The position numbers were made by a program, and so were the translations under genes. The notes below the pieces were generated by a model. That model had not been told where the DNA came from. It saw only the letters and a program-made list of their open reading frames with translations, and did no database searches. A stretch of 64,000 bases of DNA from the IMG/VR virus record IMGVR_UViG_3300037424_001682, positions 1 through 64,000 of that record. One strand, 5' to 3'. Position 1 is the first letter of the stretch. Each line of letters opens with the position of its first letter. Positions 6,916-25,125 of this stretch are shown here, one piece after another. Origin of the DNA: a virus (taxonomy: Duplodnaviria; Caudoviricetes).

Positions 6916-7780
6916 GAAATATATACAACGAACTAAAACTCAGGACGATACTTTAAATAAGAATTCTCCTGTAAGAAATATGTATTACGGAAGAGTAGTT
7001 TCTATTGATGATCCTACAGATGGCGGTATTATTAAGGTAAAAATTGAAAAATTAGATGATTTTATTGCCGATGCTGATTTACCAGAAGCATATCCTATTC
7101 TCCCTAAATTTTTCTATGTATTACCAAAAATTGGTGAGGTGGTCCGTGTTTTTATTCCTGATTTACAAACACCACAAGCTGGAAGACAATATATTGGAAG
7201 CGTAATTTCTCAATTACATAAAATAGGTAACAATTCATTTTATACTGCATTAGCAACTACAAACGTATATAAATCAACACCAGATAAAGCACCATCCACA
7301 TTTCCAGATGCAAAGGGAGTTTTTCCCGAAAAAGAAGATATTGCAATTATCGGTAGAGACAATACTGATATGATTTTAAGAGAAAGAGAAGTTGAAATTC
7401 GTGCTGGTAAACATGATGTTGGTGATATATTACAATTAAACAAAACAAATCCATCATCAATAAAATTAACTATTGATGCAGATGGAACTGTTAGTAGTAA
7501 CGTTGTTATGGCTGATAAGATTGCACTAATTTCTCATGATGGTATCCCTAAATTTAAAGCAGCAGAAGTTGATGAAGAAGAACGTATTAGAATATTTGAA
7601 GAAGCACACCCAATGGTTAGGGGAGATGTTCTTTTAGCAATATTGGAAATAATACGAAAAGCAATTTTGCAACATGTGCATCCATATGATAAAATGGAAG
7701 CAGATTTATCTAAAATAATTGTTGATCTACAAAATTTAGATTTAGAAAATATATTACAAAAAAACATTGTGATTAATTAA
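6902..7780 (+). CDS. baseplate central spike protein (gp5/gpV-like OB-fold)
   Basis: YGRVVSIDDP..GIIKVKI...LPKIGEVVRV is the gp5/gpV N-terminal OB-fold pattern; C-terminal HVH motif as in metal-binding spike tips. Confidence 0.7.
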   Translation: MTYNKKYIQRTKTQDDTLNKNSPVRNMYYGRVVSIDDPTDGGIIKVKIEKLDDFIADADLPEAYPILPKFFYVLPKIGEVVRVFIPDLQTPQAGRQYIGSVISQLHKIGNNSFYTALATTNVYKSTPDKAPSTFPDAKGVFPEKEDIAIIGRDNTDMILREREVEIRAGKHDVGDILQLNKTNPSSIKLTIDADGTVSSNVVMADKIALISHDGIPKFKAAEVDEEERIRIFEEAHPMVRGDVLLAILEIIRKAILQHVHPYDKMEADLSKIIVDLQNLDLENILQKNIVIN

Positions 7781-16517: not shown

Positions 16518-17281
16518 CACAAAAATATAAAATACGACCAATACCAACTAAAGATATTATAATTCCAATTGCAATATCTAGCGATAATTCATTAAGTGGG
16601 TTACAAGATGATATTGAAGATTATGTTGAAAGAGAAACGGGGTTATCAATTAATAGTGCGGATGACGGTGAAAGTTTTAGATATTTACCAACGGGAAACA
16701 CCACAATGATTTTTGAATTTTATAGCGGTGGGACATATTATACTGATTTATTTGCTGCTGGTTTTAAAAATTCAGATATAGGATATACAAATCCAATTCT
16801 TACAAGTTTTTATTTATTAACATTATTTGATAGTAGAAATAGAAGCTCACAATTAAAATTAAATAACGGTTTTTTAAACGGATTTAACTTTATTGAATCA
16901 AGTGGTAACACCATTTATGATATCACAAGTAATAAGGAGTTTTCTAATTTATATATTAGAAACGATTATATTAATACATTAACTGGTCTTACTACCTTAT
17001 ATTTCACATTATCGTTTTTTAATGGTAAAACAGGTGAAATTCAATTGTTTTTTAATAATGATTTATCTGGAGACACTACAGATAATCGAAATTATTTTGG
17101 AATTGTTTTAAATCCAATTAATAAAACTTTTTCTTGGAGTGGTTCTACAATTAATGCAAGAGAAATAATCAATACAGGATTTACTCAAACATATAATCAA
17201 ACTGTTGATAAATTTCAAAATCAAAAACCATTATTTCCTAGTGGAAATGCGTTATCAGGCAATACTTATATTACAATTTAA
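16511..17281 (+). CDS. hypothetical virion protein
   Basis: 256-aa ORF, T/G/N/F-rich, overlapping the upstream stop. Confidence 0.6.
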   Translation: MLTQKYKIRPIPTKDIIIPIAISSDNSLSGLQDDIEDYVERETGLSINSADDGESFRYLPTGNTTMIFEFYSGGTYYTDLFAAGFKNSDIGYTNPILTSFYLLTLFDSRNRSSQLKLNNGFLNGFNFIESSGNTIYDITSNKEFSNLYIRNDYINTLTGLTTLYFTLSFFNGKTGEIQLFFNNDLSGDTTDNRNYFGIVLNPINKTFSWSGSTINAREIINTGFTQTYNQTVDKFQNQKPLFPSGNALSGNTYITI

Positions 17282-18051
17282 ACGTATATCCCAAATCGTG
17301 GAGGTCTGCTTGTTCTGGTAACAATAAATTCTTTTTCGTCTTGAAGAAATCCAAGAAGTTTTATTTTGTATGATGTTACAAAATATCGATCACCATCAAT
17401 ATTTTCAATCGTATTTTCTTCATCCATACTATCAAGCAATATTGGCATGGGATTTCCTTTTATGAAAACATATTCTTGAATTGACGCAAAATTACGTAAA
17501 GTTTGTTCATCATATTTGTTAATATCTATTTGATATTTACTAAATAATCGAACATCATATGTTAAATCAACGTTTACTGGTTCTGGCATCTTTAATCTTA
17601 AATTGATGATTTCACCATCTTCTGAAATTGGTACATCAACATATCTAAATACTCTTCCTTGTGCAACACGAGCCTGACCACCAATTCTAGTGCCCTTTTC
17701 TTTTCGAGTTCTACGTATTGTTATTATGGGAAATATAACGTTTTTATCTCCATCAGAGTATTTCCAAGTTTTTTGAAACTCCCCCCAACGTTCATTACTT
17801 AAATAAAATGTTGGTACTTGTTTACCATCAAGAACCAATTTCATATTACCGTTTTTTACATAATCTAAAATTGCTGTATCTAAATTTTTCAATTCTACAG
17901 TTCTCGGTAAATATTTGGTTTTTTTATCAGTATCAATCATAAGTTTTTCTATTCGATCCATACCATAATGTAAAAACTTATCTCCAACCTTTGGTGGATT
18001 GATGTTGGTATTATATTTAAAGTTAGGATGTTTCTTTTTTGGTAATGCCAT
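17278..18051 (-). CDS. tail terminator/sheath stabiliser-like protein (T4 gp15-like)
   Basis: FPIITIRR, PEPVNVDLTYDVRLFSKYQIDINKYDEQ pattern of tail completion proteins. Confidence 0.6.
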   Translation of the reverse strand: MALPKKKHPNFKYNTNINPPKVGDKFLHYGMDRIEKLMIDTDKKTKYLPRTVELKNLDTAILDYVKNGNMKLVLDGKQVPTFYLSNERWGEFQKTWKYSDGDKNVIFPIITIRRTRKEKGTRIGGQARVAQGRVFRYVDVPISEDGEIINLRLKMPEPVNVDLTYDVRLFSKYQIDINKYDEQTLRNFASIQEYVFIKGNPMPILLDSMDEENTIENIDGDRYFVTSYKIKLLGFLQDEKEFIVTRTSRPPRFGIYV

Positions 18052-18064
18052 TTTACGTTTTTTA

Positions 18065-18073
18065 TATAAATAC
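18065..18073 (-). promoter_or_regulatory. putative late promoter GTATTTATA
   Basis: upstream of 18051. Confidence 0.65.
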
Positions 18074-18124
18074 TATTGATTTTAGCTTGTGGGATATAAG
18101 TGATAAATTAAATTAGTAAAAACA

Positions 18125-18156
18125 CTTGACAAATAAAATAAAAAGATTTACTTTTG
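18125..18156 (+). promoter_or_regulatory. Bacteroidota-type sigma70 promoter driving the accessory cassette region
   Basis: CTTG (18125-18128), 20-nt spacer, TACTTTTG (18149-18156) fits -33 TTG / -7 TAnnTTTG. Confidence 0.6.
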
Positions 18157-18275
18157 TAAAGTCAGTAATAAAACAATAAACATAGGGTTGGGTTCATCCG
18201 AATTAACGCTTTTGAATAGTAGACCATACAGTAGGGATTATTATGCAGAAAACTTGATTTGAAACACTAAACAAA

Positions 18276-18581
18276 ATGAAAGATAAGATAAGAGAAAATG
18301 CTAAAAAATACTTCGATGAAGAATTAAGTGGAGAACCATTATACCAAGATTTAGTAATTGATTGGCTTACTGAATTTGCAAAACAGCAAGTAAAATTATT
18401 TGCTATACCTGTTGTTGTGCGTTCGTTGCCGATTGGTGATGAATTACATAAAACAATAGACGGAAGGTATATTCTCAGATGTATATCTTTTCCAATAGCC
18501 GATAAATTTAATACTCACCCTGAAAAAGTGACGGACGTAGTTGAGCAGATAATAGAGAATTTGAACAGGGTAAGGAAATGA
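18276..18581 (+). CDS. hypothetical protein spanning a cassette junction
   Basis: 101-aa ORF containing the GTTGTGCGT core site at 18414-18422; its stop abuts attC-like site A. Confidence 0.6.
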   Translation: MKDKIRENAKKYFDEELSGEPLYQDLVIDWLTEFAKQQVKLFAIPVVVRSLPIGDELHKTIDGRYILRCISFPIADKFNTHPEKVTDVVEQIIENLNRVRK

Positions 18582-18582
18582 C

Positions 18583-18700
18583 GCACAACGTTGAGTATAT
18601 GAGGCGTTGCACCACAAAAATTAATAAAATGAAACGATTATAATTTTAATATAAATTTAAAAAAGACCACAGAGGCAATGCCTTATATACATTGTTATGT
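18583..18700 (+). repeat. attC-like hairpin site A
   Basis: GCACAAC ... GTTATGT ends; arms GTATATGAGGCGTTGC (18595-18610) and GCAATGCCTTATATAC (18675-18690) are complementary apart from two G-T pairs. Confidence 0.7.
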
Positions 18701-18713
18701 GGCGTTAATTATT

Positions 18714-19118
18714 ATGAAAAGATTAGAAAAAATTAAAACAAATGAAACCATTTCTGAAATGTTTTTCAGATTAAAAGAAGAATGCGAACAACCAATTACA
18801 AAATTAAATTATATTGAATTTTTATATAAAATTTTACCTAAAGGTTCTAATATACCAGAAACAAACTTATATGGCATATTACCTGATGGTAGTAAAATAC
18901 TTCAATATCCTTCATTAAATTCTCAATCTATTCTATTTGGTGAACCTGAAACTTATATTCAAAAATTAGAAGAAATAACCAATAAAGATAATTTTTTATG
19001 TTGGTGTAATTATAATGATTATACCATATGGTGGAATGATAATAATCTTCAACTTGATATGTCTCCATTTCTATCGTGGGTCGATGTTGATATGAACTTA
19101 GAGCCAATTAGAAGGTAG
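18714..19118 (+). CDS. hypothetical cassette-borne protein
   Basis: ATG 18714 just after site A; the track start at 18678 lies inside the hairpin arm. Confidence 0.65.
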   Translation: MKRLEKIKTNETISEMFFRLKEECEQPITKLNYIEFLYKILPKGSNIPETNLYGILPDGSKILQYPSLNSQSILFGEPETYIQKLEEITNKDNFLCWCNYNDYTIWWNDNNLQLDMSPFLSWVDVDMNLEPIRR

Positions 19119-19131
19119 TCGGTAGTATTGT

Positions 19132-19262
19132 GCCTAACGATTTGTATAAATTTCAGGTTGGGATTAAAGTGTGAAGCCCTATCAACCTGCCAAAATGATG
19201 CAAGTAACACGACTATTTCAAGTTGCTAACAAGCCCCAACTTGAATTTATACAGGGTTATAG
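19132..19262 (+). repeat. attC-like hairpin site B
   Basis: GCCTAAC (perfect RYYYAAC) ... GTTATAG; arms 19143-19162 and 19235-19253 pair with one bulged T and one G-T pair. Confidence 0.75.
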
Positions 19263-19281
19263 GGCGTTTATTTTTATCGAA

Positions 19282-19455
19282 ATGAAAAAATATAAAATTA
19301 CTTTTCAAAATGGAGAATCAGTTACAGTAAATGGTAAGTTGATTACGCAATGTGAAGCGACAGGGCAAATTTTTATCTATTTTGAAAATGACCCAACGTG
19401 GAAAAATATTTCTGCGATTGTTCCTGCATCAGCCTGTGTTGTTGTTATTGGCTAA
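19282..19455 (+). CDS. small hypothetical cassette-borne protein (57 aa)
   Basis: MKKYKITFQNGESVTVNG...; the track start at 19171 reads through site B. Confidence 0.6.
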   Translation: MKKYKITFQNGESVTVNGKLITQCEATGQIFIYFENDPTWKNISAIVPASACVVVIG

Positions 19456-19457
19456 AT

Positions 19458-19467
19458 GCCCTATAAC
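19458..19467 (+). repeat. truncated attC-like site C (left core only)
   Basis: GCCCTATAAC, 2 nt after the stop, is the exact reverse complement of GTTATAGGGC at 19256-19265; no right arm found. Confidence 0.6.
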
Positions 19468-19684
19468 TATTATATATAAAAACACATATATAACTAACTG
19501 ATTATGAATGCAAAATCAAAAGCAACTCTCACAAAGATGAAAATTTATATGAGAGTTAAGAATTATTCTCGCTTAGGATCTCGATGAAAAAAGAAAAGAA
19601 AGATTTCATAGGATTTTCTATGAAGTCGGAACTATTTTACGTATATAATATTATAATATAAATTTATGAAAAAATAGATAGACA

Positions 19685-20011
19685 ATGCTAATCAAAAAAG
19701 AAACAAAAGGAGAAGTTGGTGATCAATTTATTGAAGCAATATTTGAATCATCAAACATATTAATGACTACTTATTTTCCAGAAAAAAATAAACTATATAT
19801 TCACTTTAATAGAGGTGGTACATATTCATATACTAATGTAACAGAAAATATTTATAATGCGTTTGAAATGGCAGATTCTCAGGGTAAGTATTTTTTAACC
19901 GAAATCAAAAAAAATCCTAATAAATATCCATACGCAAAAGAATTCTCTCTTACTAACAGTGAAATCAATAATGCAAAACAAGTAATTAAGGAATATAATG
20001 AACGCAATTGA
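19685..20011 (+). CDS. KTSC domain protein
   Basis: ESSNI...Y......LYIHFNRGGTYSYTNV...IYNAF..ADSQGKYF is the KTSC signature. Confidence 0.85.
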   Translation: MLIKKETKGEVGDQFIEAIFESSNILMTTYFPEKNKLYIHFNRGGTYSYTNVTENIYNAFEMADSQGKYFLTEIKKNPNKYPYAKEFSLTNSEINNAKQVIKEYNERN

Positions 20012-20515: not shown

Positions 20516-20872
20516 ATGAAGGATAATAAAATAAATAGTTTAAACGAATATCAAGATTTAGCATCTAAAACAGCAATATATCCACATGCTGGTGAAGGTA
20601 CAATATTAGGTTTAGCATATACTGCATTAGGGTTGGGTGAGGCAGGTGAAGTGCAAAATAAAGTAAAAAAAATAATTAGAGATGATAATAATATTATTTC
20701 TGATCAGAAAAAAATGGAAATTGCTAAAGAATTAGGGGGAAATTTATGGTACATTTCTCAATGTGCTAAAGAATTAGGATTTACATTAAGCGAAATTGCT
20801 ACAATTAACATTAACGAATTATATTCTCGTATGGAACGTGGTGTTATCACAGGAAGTGGAGATAATAGATAA
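20516..20872 (+). CDS. MazG-like nucleotide pyrophosphohydrolase
   Basis: NEYQ.LA.KTA, LGLGEAGEVQNKVKK, KELGGNLWYI...A..LG..LSEIA..NI.EL.SR..RG. Confidence 0.85.
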   Translation: MKDNKINSLNEYQDLASKTAIYPHAGEGTILGLAYTALGLGEAGEVQNKVKKIIRDDNNIISDQKKMEIAKELGGNLWYISQCAKELGFTLSEIATININELYSRMERGVITGSGDNR

Positions 20873-20991: not shown

Positions 20992-22587
20992 TTATGCAAA
21001 AACTTTGTCTTGCTTAATATCATAACACTCAACTATATGGCTTTTTATCTTGGATTTTGATAATTTCTTTGGTCTATATAATCCCTTTTCTTTAATCATC
21101 AACGATTTCCTTAGAACATCTAAGACCATCCTATCCTCAATCATTTTAGCTGAATGAGTATCCGCATTGGACTTGTGTCCACATGAGATACATTCAAATT
21201 CTTCTTGTACTTTCCTGTTATCCCTTGTTACACTACCACAACATTCACATGTTTGAGATGTATAATAAGGTTGAACGAAAGTAACTTGTATGTTATTCTT
21301 ATCCCCAATACTCTTTACAATATTCTTTATTGAAGATAGATTTAGTAATTTAACCAATCTTGAATATTTAAATCCCTCATATTCATCACTCTTTGTGAAT
21401 GATTTACCGAACACCCCCAAATCTTCAAGTATTAAATGATTAAATCCCTTATCTTTTGTTTGTTTAACTAAGACACTTGATTTCCTTTTAAGCATATCAG
21501 TTATCTTAATCTTAAACTTTGTAAGTTTAATCGTATCTTTTATAGATAATTTACTGTTTTTCTCTTTTCTTGTTTTTTTATCATCAAGCTCTTTTAAAAA
21601 TTTTACATAATCATTAAATAAATCTCTATCATAATCAATAATATTACCATATTTATCAACAAATAAATTATGTTTAACATTAATATCTATACCATAATAA
21701 TCTGTTTTATATTTAACTTCATTAATAAATTTTGGTTTTGATAATATAACTCTTATCTTATTTCCTTCAAAACATATTTTATATGAAATTACCCTTTGTC
21801 CTTTCTTATTAGGTTTTTTATAATAATATTTTAAATTACCATGATAATTCCTTGAATATTTTATTGGTATATGAATTTTACCGTCATCTGTTTTTTGTCC
21901 TGATAAAGAAATAAAACAATTATATAGAGATTCTTGGTTTTTATTCTTATTTATTATGTTAATTTTTTGTTCAGTACAAGAAGTAAACGATAATGAAGTA
22001 AAGGTTATTGAATGTTTTGTTAAACTATTTATTATATTATTTTGTTTATTTTTAACTAAATTAAGTAATCTATTTTCATATTTATCAATATAATACAAAA
22101 CATCATTTCTTAATTCTGTATTATTATTTTCTTTAAGATAATCAATTAATTTATCATGATAATATTTAACAAGATAACTAACTACCTTAGTTAATTTAGT
22201 TTCTTTAAACACTATCTCTTTATCTTTTAAATCACCTTTTTTATTATTTTTTGTATTAACTTTATAATAAGCATATTTTATTTCTTTTTGTATTTTTGAT
22301 TTACTTTTTTTATTAAAAGAACTTATTTTATTTTCATAAGCAACGTATGTATCTGATATTGCATTAGAAATATCTTGATTATTACAAGAATTTAATTTAC
22401 ATCTAAAATGATTTATCCAATCAAATTTAGATAAGTTAAAGAAATGTATAGGATTATTACAAACTTCAGTAGAAATGTTATTTTTAAAATCTCTTAATTG
22501 CAATGCTTTATTATACAAAATATCATATTTACCTATATTTAGGTTATCAGAATAGAAAGAATATGATTTTTGTGTAAGTTGTGGCAT
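20992..22587 (-). CDS. tnpB: TnpB RNA-guided endonuclease (IS607-associated)
   Basis: RuvC-I YGIDIN, RuvC-II LILEDL, YTSQTCECCG...FECISCGH zinc ribbon, RuvC-III NADTHSA. Confidence 0.9.
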   Translation of the reverse strand: MPQLTQKSYSFYSDNLNIGKYDILYNKALQLRDFKNNISTEVCNNPIHFFNLSKFDWINHFRCKLNSCNNQDISNAISDTYVAYENKISSFNKKSKSKIQKEIKYAYYKVNTKNNKKGDLKDKEIVFKETKLTKVVSYLVKYYHDKLIDYLKENNNTELRNDVLYYIDKYENRLLNLVKNKQNNIINSLTKHSITFTSLSFTSCTEQKINIINKNKNQESLYNCFISLSGQKTDDGKIHIPIKYSRNYHGNLKYYYKKPNKKGQRVISYKICFEGNKIRVILSKPKFINEVKYKTDYYGIDINVKHNLFVDKYGNIIDYDRDLFNDYVKFLKELDDKKTRKEKNSKLSIKDTIKLTKFKIKITDMLKRKSSVLVKQTKDKGFNHLILEDLGVFGKSFTKSDEYEGFKYSRLVKLLNLSSIKNIVKSIGDKNNIQVTFVQPYYTSQTCECCGSVTRDNRKVQEEFECISCGHKSNADTHSAKMIEDRMVLDVLRKSLMIKEKGLYRPKKLSKSKIKSHIVECYDIKQDKVFA

Positions 22588-22594
22588 TTTATAG

Positions 22595-23182
22595 TTAATT
22601 TGTCAAATTTTTTATTAGTTTTTCTGTATTTCTTTTACTTCTTCTATTTCCATATATTCTTGAACAAAATGAGGTAATAATTGAAACAAAATCTTCGATA
22701 AGGTCTTCTTTTTCAGATGTTATGTTATTAACCACTTCAATTTCTTTTCCCAAAACTTCGGTAAACAATTGAAAATAATTAAATCCGAATCTAGTTAATC
22801 TATCTTTATGTTCAACAACTATCTTACTATATTTATTATCTTTTAATATTTTAGATAATTTCGGTCTTTGGTCGTTAACACCGGATGCAATTTCAATTAC
22901 TACTTCACCAACCTTATAGCCTTTTGCATTACAATAATTTATTAATCTTTCTTTTTGTGTTTCAAGATTAGATTTATTTTCAGAAGAAGACACTCTACAA
23001 TAAATAATAACATATTCTTCTTTATGTTCTTTAATACCCAATAATCTATTATATGTTTCAAGAGAAACAAAATTTCTATTTGTCTTAGATTTAATAAATT
23101 CGATATCACCTTTCAAACGCCAGTTATAAATTGTAGCTTTTGTCACGCTCAAGTCTTTAGCTAATTTAGATAGTTTAATCAT
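22595..23182 (-). CDS. tnpA: IS607 serine transposase TnpA
   Basis: N-terminal HTH, YCRVSS, IASGVNDQRPKL, VVEHKDRLTRFGF, EDLIEDFVSIITSFCSRIYG. Confidence 0.93.
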   Translation of the reverse strand: MIKLSKLAKDLSVTKATIYNWRLKGDIEFIKSKTNRNFVSLETYNRLLGIKEHKEEYVIIYCRVSSSENKSNLETQKERLINYCNAKGYKVGEVVIEIASGVNDQRPKLSKILKDNKYSKIVVEHKDRLTRFGFNYFQLFTEVLGKEIEVVNNITSEKEDLIEDFVSIITSFCSRIYGNRRSKRNTEKLIKNLTN

Positions 23183-23606: not shown

Positions 23607-25125
23607 ATCATATCTAATCATATTTAATGTAGACAAATATACAAAACTTTTGACTTTTATTAAAAATAATTTAGTTTTTTTTATGAAAATGTTGAAATTT
23701 AATTTTTTTATTAGTATTTATTATTGGTGGGTATATATACCCAAATTATCAAATGTTATTAACTGAATCACATATAATTAAACGTTCTCATTCTTTTTAT
23801 AAAGAAATTGATTTATTGTGTTTTAAATCAAAAAATCTTTATAATTATGCTAATTATATTGTGAGACAAAAGTTTATTGAAACATCTAAACTAAAAGAAC
23901 GGGGTTTAAAACAAAACGCTGAATGGATCAGATATCACCAGCTACATAGTATGCTTCTTGATCAAGTTGATTATACTGCGCTCCCTGCTAAAGTCTCTCA
24001 ACAGGTTTTGTTAAACCTGGACAGAAACTGGAAATCATTTTTTGCTTCAATAAAAGATTGGGTCAAGAATCCTTCAAAATATAACGGTAGACCAAAGTTA
24101 CCAAAATATAAACACAAAACGAAGGGTAGGTTTGTTTTGAATTATACTTCTCAAGCTGTTTCCAAAACAGAATTAAGAAAAGGGTTTGTGAAGTTGTCCC
24201 TGACAAACATAAAAATAAAGTACATTAACAACCAATATCCCATACGACAGGTAAGGATAGTACCATTAAAAAATAAGAATTATAAAGTAGAGATAATTTA
24301 TGATAGAAACATAGTTAAATACAGTAGTCAGAAACATGCTTTAATGTCAATAGACTTAGGAGTTAATAATTTTGCAACCATAACGACAAATCAAAAAGGG
24401 GTGTCCCCTATGGTGATTAAAGGTGGAATACTAAAATCAATTAACCAATATTATAATAAGCAGTTGTCAAAATACAAATCTGAGTTACCATATTATAATT
24501 TTACCAATAAAGATGATAACACAGAAAAGAAACAAGTTTCTTATTCTAACAAGATTTACGGATTAACAAGAAAGAGAAACAATAAGATTAATTATTGGAT
24601 GCATTTGTATTCAAAAAGGATCGTTGAATATTGTTTGAAAAACAATATAGGAGAAATTGTTGTCGGAGTTAACAAGGGCTGGAAGCAAGAAACTGAAATG
24701 GGTAAGAAGAACAATCAGAATTTTGTAACTCTTCCTTATTCTAAATTCAGACAGATGTTAGAATACAAAACAGAGTTGGCGGGCATTAAATACAAAGAAC
24801 AGGAAGAGAGTTATACATCAAAAGCATCCTTTTTAAATTTAGATCCTATACCAGTGTACAGAAAGAATAATAAAGAGAATTATAAATTTTCTGGATACAG
24901 GGTTAGTGGTAAGAGGGGATTGTATAAAATAAAAAACAACACATTACCACAAGGTAAAGAACTACGTATTAACTCAGATGTAAATGGGTCGTATAACATC
25001 TTAAGAAAAGCATTCCCCAATGAGTTTTCGGAGGGGATAGAGGGCATTGTAGTATGTCCAGTGATATTTGATTTAGATCAGATGCACAAAGCAGAGACTG
25101 TTAACAAAAGTTAAGGGTTTTTGTT
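23607..25125 (+). mobile_element. non-autonomous IS200/IS605-superfamily element (solo tnpB); ends approximate
   Basis: tnpB without an adjacent Y1 tnpA; palindrome TGGGTATATATACCCA at 23728-23743; hairpin GGGCAT-TGTAGT-ATGTCC at 25042-25059 near the right end. Confidence 0.6.
23753..25114 (+). CDS. tnpB: TnpB-family RNA-guided endonuclease
   Basis: SKNLYNYANY, PKLPKYK, RuvC-I SIDLGVNN, EESYTSKASFL, RuvC-III INSDVNGSYNILRK. Confidence 0.9.
   Translation: MLLTESHIIKRSHSFYKEIDLLCFKSKNLYNYANYIVRQKFIETSKLKERGLKQNAEWIRYHQLHSMLLDQVDYTALPAKVSQQVLLNLDRNWKSFFASIKDWVKNPSKYNGRPKLPKYKHKTKGRFVLNYTSQAVSKTELRKGFVKLSLTNIKIKYINNQYPIRQVRIVPLKNKNYKVEIIYDRNIVKYSSQKHALMSIDLGVNNFATITTNQKGVSPMVIKGGILKSINQYYNKQLSKYKSELPYYNFTNKDDNTEKKQVSYSNKIYGLTRKRNNKINYWMHLYSKRIVEYCLKNNIGEIVVGVNKGWKQETEMGKKNNQNFVTLPYSKFRQMLEYKTELAGIKYKEQEESYTSKASFLNLDPIPVYRKNNKENYKFSGYRVSGKRGLYKIKNNTLPQGKELRINSDVNGSYNILRKAFPNEFSEGIEGIVVCPVIFDLDQMHKAETVNKS

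Follow-up and report, generated by a model that had tools for sequence, protein, structure and literature searches.

Integrons are regarded as bacterial platforms defined by the recombinase IntI, and the shuffling of accessory genes in phages is thought to proceed mainly by homologous or illegitimate recombination. In the sedentary chromosomal integron of Vibrio cholerae the attC sites are homogeneous repeats of about 120-126 nt, and complementarity of cassette ends is the classical argument both for integron cassettes and for the position of their cross-over point. Here we consider a stretch of 64,000 nucleotides (the window) from a Caudoviricetes virus, IMG/VR record IMGVR_UViG_3300037424_001682, in which an earlier note, made from the sequence alone, had claimed an integron-like array of gene cassettes between positions 18276 and 19470 of a jumbo phage genome. 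The window is a part of a 78-kb record with completeness estimated by CheckV as 27%; since its relatives reach 349 kb, the label “jumbo phage” is reasonable. Integrons have been listed for Bacteroidota (PMC8618304), and clusters of attC sites lacking integron integrases (CALINs) were described in virulent phages, including one phage of a Bacteroidota host (Polaribacter), with 2-3 classical attC sites per genome detected by IntegronFinder/HattCI; some of these sites were recombined by IntI1 in an assay (PMC9892861). Stem-loop elements of T4-type phages known as PeSLs combine an early promoter with a terminator stem-loop and act by homologous recombination (PMC2839356, PMC4122927).

Judged by comparison of sequences, the region in question is very probably a short and degraded array of integron-like cassettes, which was gained by the phage as one block. 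The array system to which it belongs is widespread, common to Bacteroidota and their phages, and scarcely described: a full-text search of the literature returned no description of its site family, its Xer-like recombinase or the reversed cassettes of phages, though a survey of transposable elements of the miniature inverted-repeat kind (MITEs) common to Bacteroidota and viruses may have catalogued some of the elements (PMC11602168). As in classical integrons, cassettes with single genes form arrays with imperfect hairpins bounded by AAC...GTT cores, each cassette begins with a sequence that can pair with the inverse core of its site, one folding strand is favoured and keeps the canonical geometry to a tyrosine recombinase, and an att site that forms no hairpin lies beside the recombinase gene; near-identical sites next to unrelated open reading frames (ORFs) are a feature shared with sedentary integrons. 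Unlike classical systems, the recombinase is Xer-like, 267-375 aa long and devoid of the IntI-specific insertion; the cores are (T/C)AAC and GTT(A/G) with a free 6-nt box instead of RYYYAAC and GTTRRRY; strand bias arises through G-T pairs and loop asymmetry, with no conserved extrahelical bases found; the unpaired interior is large (55-75 nt); and the ORFs of phages occupy the folding strand and are read towards the recombinase, whereas in Maribacter they are arranged classically. The comparison with attC made in the earlier note held for hairpins with AAC/GTT cores and failed for the RYYYAAC/GTTRRRY consensus and conserved extrahelical bases, and the system does not count as a classical integron. 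Attachment sites of attC type in lytic phage genomes without integrase are a trait in common with phage CALINs, but an Xer-like recombinase, an attI-like site and reversed gene orientation are not in that description (PMC9892861). The recombinase scores best against XerA/integron-integrase models; however, the task of Xer proteins is resolution of chromosome dimers at dif sites in double-stranded DNA, and they are not known to be linked to cassette arrays, while IntI proteins possess an extra domain contacting extrahelical bases, which is missing here.

All the sequence features on which the array had been proposed were found in their places. Its two complete sites, A and B, are bounded by AAC and GTT and have long complementary arms, i.e. 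long-range imperfect inverted repeats with G-T pairs; the covariance model of the family (R1, see below) gave them 120 bits (E 7e-25) and 91 bits (E 3e-18), respectively, and found no other member in the window and no further copy in the rest of the record. A weak match at 7267-7354 (minus strand) has no cores and was not accepted as a member. Two pairs of cassette ends are exactly complementary, GTTGTGCGT (18414) with ACGCACAAC (18581) over 9/9 and GTTATAGGGC (19256) with GCCCTATAAC (19458) over 10/10 bases, and the middle cassette is indeed unmatched, having TGTGGC after site A and TGTGCC before site B. Such inverted matches by themselves are not rare (for 19 of the window's 1245 GTT-started 9-mers an inverted copy occurs 60-700 nt downstream), and their significance rests therefore on the family and not on the window alone.

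The family was approached from LR756500.1, a phage of 462 kb with a blastn match to the interior and 3' end of site A; together with two subsequent pattern scans of IMG/VR, this revealed dozens of copies upstream of unrelated genes. Its elements are 85-150 nt long and consist of (T/C)AAC, an asymmetric loop of 4-6 nt, a helix of 17-20 bp starting with a GTATA-like sequence, a type-specific interior (55-75 nt), the returning arm, a further 1-3 nt and GTT(A/G). An alignment of 24 members was used to build R1. In this alignment 87% of helix cells were paired against 71% in shuffles, and compensatory changes were registered in 14 of 18 helix pairs, with a score reached in 0 of 500 shuffles and slid controls coming no closer. 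G-T pairs turned out to be one-sided, with G in the 5' arm 75 times and in the opposite arm 8 times. The model strand folds better in 19 of the 24 aligned members and, with DNA parameters, in 55 of 62, so the strand-biased folding predicted for attC-like sites was observed; the (T/C)AAC and GTT(A/G) cores are present in all 62. For the sites of the window, DNA-parameter folding gave -9.7 (plus strand) versus -7.4 (minus strand) kcal/mol for A and -15.1 versus -13.3 for B. RNA folds had energies of -32.5 kcal/mol (z -4.6) and -37.2 kcal/mol (z -2.3), respectively, site A being better on the plus strand and site B slightly better on the minus strand with these parameters. Copies from LR756500.1 and locus L026 have no 5' arm and do not fold; being truncated, they do not speak against the helix.

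Near-identical copies of site A are present in more than 15 IMG/VR contigs and in LR756500.1. The custom covariance model, applied as had been suggested to phages and Bacteroidota, disclosed same-strand arrays in both. In phages they comprise about 22 copies in 13 kb (L036), 5-6 copies each (L037, L031, L030, L034), five copies in a complete terminally redundant genome of 103 kb (G005) and nine in LR756500.1. A pattern scan of 185,579 species genomes registered 47 loci, mostly in Bacteroidota, including the complete chromosome of Maribacter litopenaei, Prolixibacter and Carboxylicivirga; a few loci on small contigs of unrelated metagenome-assembled genomes (MAGs) are probably mis-binned. Dense arrays were also seen on short contigs of a Methanolobus MAG (L079, L082, L089; 12 model matches in 5.6 kb of L082) and on others binned as Saccharibacteria, Clostridiaceae and further taxa, which are most likely mis-binned phage or Bacteroidota DNA. 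The type A hairpin together with its 22-nt leader was found about 90-100% identical next to unrelated ORFs in many contigs with otherwise no relation to each other, namely L031, L037, L040, L047, L050, L051, L055, L057, L062 and L001 (LR756500.1, 49304-49436).

The rule that holds the ends of cassettes together became apparent from arrays of phages. The six nucleotides following GTTA (N6) are the reverse complement of those preceding the next TAAC (N6') in 25 of 42 neighbouring pairs (binomial P 4e-25), and 16 of these pairs match over exactly 6 nt. In the control, two flanks of one element gave a mean run of 0.73, and among all pairs 3.8% reached 4 nt. The box is framed by GT (45/62) and AT (46/62), which adds one G-T and one T-A pair and extends the stem to 12 bp. 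The fourth base of the core covaries across the gene as well (GTTG/CAAC, GTTC/GAAC). In Maribacter, where the parse was imperfect, a run of at least 4 was obtained in 17 of 35 pairs. For the last cassette of the window, GCCCTA at site C is the exact complement of the box TAGGGC following site B, and the site folded in the circle form acquires a 10-bp outer stem (-23.9 versus -16.8 kcal/mol in the array). At the start of the array, a relic GTTG core inside ORF1 pairs over 9 contiguous bases with GACGCA-CAAC at 18580-18589; the same GTTG/CAAC covariation was encountered in L056 and many times in Maribacter. The box TGTGCC before site B is unmatched to TGTGGC following site A, therefore the middle cassette is chimeric. 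Its proper partner would be GGCACA, and starts of the GTTA-GGCAC type are present in L036 and L181.

Between contigs, homology sets in with the T of TAAC, 54 of about 160 alignment ends being located between -2 and 0, and in most cases it stops 19-22 nt past GTTA, where the start codon lies. A case of whole-cassette exchange is provided by L040 and L047, which share 352 nt with 100% identity exactly from TAAC to AT-GCCACA-TAAC, with unrelated flanks; the common stretch comprises a type A hairpin, its leader and an ORF of 67 aa. As this stretch is bounded by cores, the mobile unit is the hairpin with the downstream ORF, having TAA|C on both sides (G|TTA on the other strand). The unit had been taken in the earlier note as an ORF with the hairpin that follows it, which has to be turned round, and the gap between ORF and core, given there as 0-14 nt, is 4, 16 and 8 nt. 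Variation bounded by cores, which the earlier note proposed to look for, was thus seen between L040 and L047; 29 related jumbo-phage loci are without the block.

The enzyme that accompanies these arrays was recognised in Maribacter, where two arrays of 20-30 kb, each with its elements on one strand, end at a tyrosine recombinase. These proteins, with 46% identity between them, match best to NF040815 (XerA/integron integrase) with 209 and 241 bits; across the recombinases of the system these scores range from 170 to 241 bits, and the closest PDB entries are 4a8e (XerA, E 2e-44) and then 2a3v (VchIntIA, E 9e-39). At least 180 IMG/VR contigs encode relatives, those of phages being 267-269 aa long; among the contigs are a 114-kb record with a completeness rating of 100% and jumbo phages of 195-256 kb, the latter encoding a distant homologue of the 257-aa gene of the window. 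In 80 viral recombinase loci all 98 of 98 model matches lie on the strand of the recombinase gene, nearly all of them upstream of it. After the last N6' an attI-like half-site TAAC-TAyTATATrTAA was found, which forms no hairpin and is followed by the ATG of the recombinase 36 or 51-52 nt past TAAC; it marks the recombinase-proximal array end in nine loci (L210, L181, L172, L169, L194, L195, L177, L179, L157). The Maribacter recombinases (L127, 8400-8536 and 9040-10107; L130, 623-1750) have an N-terminal extension of about 90-110 aa, absent from the phage versions.

The same junction is present in the window. Site C had been described as a half-site of attC. The TAAC half-site is indeed there, and its continuation agrees with the attI-like sequence, with an ATG at the same 36-nt spacing as in L172, L210 and L181. 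The short ORF that starts at this codon shares 13 of 22 residues (59%, pairwise E 7e-7) with the L172 recombinase (269 aa) at its N-terminus, and the similarity of its DNA ends near 19569. Based on the conserved half-site, the ATG spacing and the homology of this stump, site C is an attI-like junction rather than half of an attC site, and the recombinase gene beside it is truncated. The window has, as had been claimed, no intact integrase gene, but it does carry the 5' stump of one.

Placing the elements on the strand of the recombinase corresponds to the canonical bottom-strand geometry of integrons. In Maribacter the model strand folds better in 40 of 40 elements and ORFs occupy the opposite strand in 30 of 34 cases; this layout is that of a canonical integron with the folding strand as the bottom strand. 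The recombinase gene is co-oriented with the folding strand at one Maribacter array and inverted at the other. In phages the ORFs are found on the folding strand in 37 of 41 intervals and, beside a recombinase, in 44 of 48. The coding strand of phage ORFs is thus the folding one, which is “bottom” by its geometry to the recombinase, and phage cassettes are the reverse of bacterial ones.

The acquisition of the array by the phage was deduced from 30 related loci collected via the 257-aa gene. In 29 of the 30 this gene is succeeded, in the window order, by those of KTSC, ORF5 and MazG. The gap between the 257-aa and KTSC genes is 1634 nt in the window and mostly 74-140 nt in 29 related jumbo-phage loci, and R1 gave zero matches in any related locus. 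Since the block is absent from these 29 phages, the array has been acquired. Its left limit was set by an intergenic motif common to the relatives (ATATAAATACT..TTGATTTTA), to which similarity of the window ends near 18085; the right limit near 19650 is less firm, being placed by an 18-nt repeat at 19634 and a promoter-like sequence close to the KTSC gene. Between the two genes the order is ORF1, site A, ORF2, site B, ORF3 and half-site C (Table 1). Since the recombinase gene is cut to 22 codons, the array is now non-autonomous. Loss of the hairpin from the first cassette and its probable fusion into ORF1, the chimeric nature of the middle cassette and truncation of the recombinase gene are signs of decay, which has left the last cassette as the sole intact one in the block.

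Table 1. Position of the array, its components and neighbouring genes in the window (N6 and N6', boxes at the start and at the end of a cassette).
Feature	Position	Strand	Remarks
257-aa gene	17278-18051	-	divergent; left neighbour of the array
Inserted block, entire array	18086-19650 (approximate, ~1.56 kb)	+	comparison with 29 related jumbo-phage loci
Possible promoter of the block	18127-18157 (TTGACA 18127, TACTTTTG ~18150)	+	candidate, read from the letters
ORF1, 101 aa	18276-18581	+	from the ORF list; relic core in frame inside
Relic cassette start	18414-18425	+	within ORF1; GTTG core, N6 TGCGTT, CG replacing usual GT; hairpin lost
End of first (partial) cassette	18578-18589	+	AT-GACGCA-CAAC; fits family motif AT-N6'-(T/C)AAC
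Site A hairpin, type A	18586-18697	+	CAAC 18586-18589; helix 18595-18610/18675-18690; GTTA 18694-18697; loop, conserved interior
Leader after site A	18698-18713	+	N6 TGTGGC, GT, up to ORF2 start codon; GTTA-TGTGGC-GTTAATTATTATG conserved in many contigs
ORF2, 134 aa, cassette gene	18714-19118	+	
End of middle cassette	19127-19138	+	AT-TGTGCC-TAAC; unmatched to the box TGTGGC that follows site A
Site B hairpin, type B	19135-19259	+	TAAC 19135-19138; helix ~19141-19162/19232-19255; GTTA 19256-19259
Leader after site B	19260-19281	+	N6 TAGGGC, GT, up to ORF3 start codon; GTTA-TAGGGC-GTTTATTnTTAT conserved in type B members
ORF3, 57 aa, cassette gene	19282-19455	+	no family found (Pfam, PHROGs)
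Site C	19456-19503	+	end of last cassette AT-GCCCTA-TAAC (ATGCCCTA-TAAC, 19456-19467) and attI-like TATTATATATAA...
Recombinase stump, 27-codon ORF	19504-19587	+	homology over first 22 codons, to ~19569; ATG 36 nt past TAAC
KTSC-domain gene	19685-20011	+	right neighbour of the array

Neither Pfam nor PHROGs yielded a function for ORF1-3; ORF1, which matched no family in either collection, is probably a fusion across the relic cassette start. Homologues of ORF1-6 were absent from the first set of loci. For ORF2, five clusters of homologues were found in metagenomes and none of its relatives among viral contigs; a 54% homologue in metagenome locus L131 has family elements after it and none before. 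The upstream region was said to contain a host-type promoter. Its TTGACA and TACTTTTG are in place and resemble the -33/-7 motifs of Bacteroidota (TAnnTTTG), but a sigma-70 scan lends no support: it did not report them, and its hits were not above chance. Further upstream of ORF1, the segment 18190-18262 (TTAACG ... CATACAG-TAGGG-ATTATTATG) looks like a 5' core followed by the 3' end and leader of a type B element with no helix or GTTA; it may possibly be a collapsed element and was undetected by the covariance model. Two complementarities were noticed inside the sites: in site B, 19176-19196 is complementary to 19245-19265 (GCCCTATCAAC versus GTTATAGGGC), and in type A, with CACAGAAC and GACCACA in the interior, CCACA is complementary to TGTGG of the GTTA-N6 end. 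These boxes could provide alternative pairings or serve as extra protein-binding repeats.

As to the surroundings, the block is flanked by an imperfect 18-nt direct repeat (ATTTTACGTWTWTAATAT, 15/18) at 18050-18067 and 19634-19651, which might have arisen by duplication of a part of the former intergenic region or might represent microhomology exploited on insertion. Its intergenic site is a divergent promoter region and looks like a general hot spot for accessory genes: inserts of 413 nt (L225, 5588-6000) and 600 nt (L233, 5401-6000) with small ORFs occupy the same place and contain no family elements. The MazG-like pyrophosphohydrolase gene (20516-20872) and the KTSC gene are kept beside the insertion site in most relatives. 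An IS607-like pair is located downstream (20992-23182, minus strand, and 23753-25114, plus strand) and encodes a serine recombinase of 195 aa (PF00239) together with a TnpB/Cas12f-like protein of 531 aa, followed by a second TnpB (453 aa, OrfB_IS605). The serine recombinase and both TnpB proteins had no match in any related locus, and their genes look like further insertions. As the enzyme of the array this serine recombinase (22595-23182) was rejected, being a part of the IS607-like unit, with PF00239 absent from G005, G002, G001, G004 and LR756500.1.

Taken together, sequence comparison points to strand-biased structured sites, arrays, paired ends, exchange of whole cassettes at cores and a fixed link to an Xer-like recombinase with its attI-like site. 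The inference of an integron-like cassette array was thus borne out by the arrays, complementary ends, an identical cassette in two contexts, the linked tyrosine recombinase and the attI-like site. Brought into one picture, these traits may point to a distinct variant of integrons common to Bacteroidota and their phages, in which a minimal Xer-like recombinase without the IntI domain would act on folded hairpins of single-stranded DNA, the strand would be chosen by G-T pairs and the asymmetric loop instead of extrahelical bases, and cassettes would be turned round in phages with the hairpin doubling as a 5' leader. This broader picture is about as likely as not. The following observations weigh against reading the region as an integron-like array. 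The insertion specific for IntI is missing, and its model TIGR02249 matched below the cut-off and in two stretches, positions ~177-235 being skipped in 4 of 5 proteins tested (stretch 1 reaches 205 in L172). Among the 62 members, 4 have RYYYAAC and 2 have GTTRRRY. Conserved bulged (extrahelical) bases were not found in the helix, which is continuous over its length in most members, with insert columns occupied in few. A linked recombinase, of the Xer-like type, was found in Maribacter at the array ends, but PF00589 is absent from the 78-kb record, from the complete genome G005 and from G001-G004, which makes many phage arrays orphan; the array of G005 lies between genes of DNA polymerase and helicase, with no flanking recombinase gene. 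In the window, ends match in 2 of 3 cassettes only (10/10 from B to C and 9/9 from the relic to A, with failure from A to B), and the outer edges of the block are in AT-rich intergenic DNA, not at a core. Finally, the folding strand of phages is the mRNA strand (the 37 of 41 intervals given above), and the 3' tail of the elements is conserved up to the start codon, with ATG 17 nt past GTTA in type A and 23 nt in type B, which would also fit a role at the level of RNA.

The last two points, together with G-U pairs at conserved positions and the z-score of -4.6 for the RNA fold of site A, would be expected if the elements belonged to polycistronic phage transcripts as processing or stabilising hairpins (RNase III-like) or as translational leaders, with N6 and N6' closing a stem around the cistron. 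A promoter/leader or RNase III-type element was in fact our first working idea, prompted by the conserved tail before ATG and the G-U bias, and it was downgraded by the end rule, the orientation in Maribacter and the link to the recombinase. In Maribacter the same strand folds in 40 of 40 elements with ORFs opposite to it in 30 of 34; since the fold goes with the recombinase rather than with the mRNA, a primary function in RNA is improbable. Co-orientation of 98 of 98 elements with the recombinase, the identical cassette in two contexts with its boundaries in cores and the ending of arrays at an attI-like site that has no hairpin also stand against it. At gathering scores Rfam gave nothing in the 64 kb; WsnRNA46, considered for site A, is a weak full-length match of a generic long hairpin (21.6 bits against a threshold of 65, E 0.16-0.33) and was discarded. 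An additional role as an RNA leader in phages may nevertheless coexist with recombination.

Regulatory cassettes of the PeSL kind, i.e. promoter/terminator elements with genes shuffled by homologous recombination between copies, are very improbable here. They do share with our family repeated short elements flanking small accessory ORFs, location in variable regions of large phages and modular shuffling; type A sequences about 90-100% identical across many contigs with unrelated neighbours would suit such a process, and shuffling with formation of mini-circles is documented for PeSLs (PMC2839356, PMC4122927). However, the promoter and terminator signals are missing: the sigma-70 scan returned 10 promoter-like sites where 11.7 were expected, no T-run terminator accompanies the hairpins, and the single terminator-like site is inside ORF3, not at an element. 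Homologous recombination also leaves unexplained the N6/N6' complementarity specific for each cassette, covariation of cores and the strand-fixed link to a dedicated tyrosine recombinase. Spread of non-autonomous MITE- or REPIN-like elements by a transposase, possibly that of the IS607/TnpB unit 1.5 kb away, is hardly credible, because terminal inverted repeats and numerous copies common to Bacteroidota genomes and viruses are offset by the lack of direct target duplications, by copies standing in same-strand arrays, one per gene boundary and not dispersed, by flanks that pair across the gene and not around the element, by absence of PF00239 from five element-bearing genomes and by the presence of two copies only in the 78-kb record.

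A cassette of this system extends from C of the (T/C)AA|C core to TAA of the next one and comprises the hairpin site, the specific 6-nt box, a leader of small length, a single short ORF and the sequence complementary to the box. Most likely, by analogy with integrons, the Xer-like tyrosine recombinase makes its cut at AA|C of the folded single strand, releases cassettes in circular form and integrates them into the attI-like site. Pairing of the two boxes in such a circle would complete an outer stem of 10-12 bp. As ORFs of phages are on the folding strand, the hairpin is at the same time a structured 5' leader of each gene. The array of the window would be mobile only with the recombinase supplied in trans, by a co-infecting phage or by an array of the host.

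The family described here has all comparative hallmarks of cassette recombination with a recombinase simpler than IntI, and its occurrence extends from Bacteroidota chromosomes to complete genomes of lytic-type phages and of jumbo phages, with gene orientation reversed in phages. If functional, it would extend recombination of single-strand hairpins beyond IntI and explain a part of the small-ORF plasticity in large phages of Bacteroidota. The window is an example of an array becoming fossil, with its acquired block, chimeric cassette and truncated recombinase gene. The small size and clear limits of recombinase, attI-like site and hairpins make the mechanism directly testable. The family points to a direct channel of gene exchange between Bacteroidota phages and their hosts, and if the picture of a distinct integron variant is true, lytic and jumbo phages would have a site-specific pathway dedicated to the exchange of accessory genes, both among themselves and with the chromosomes of their hosts.

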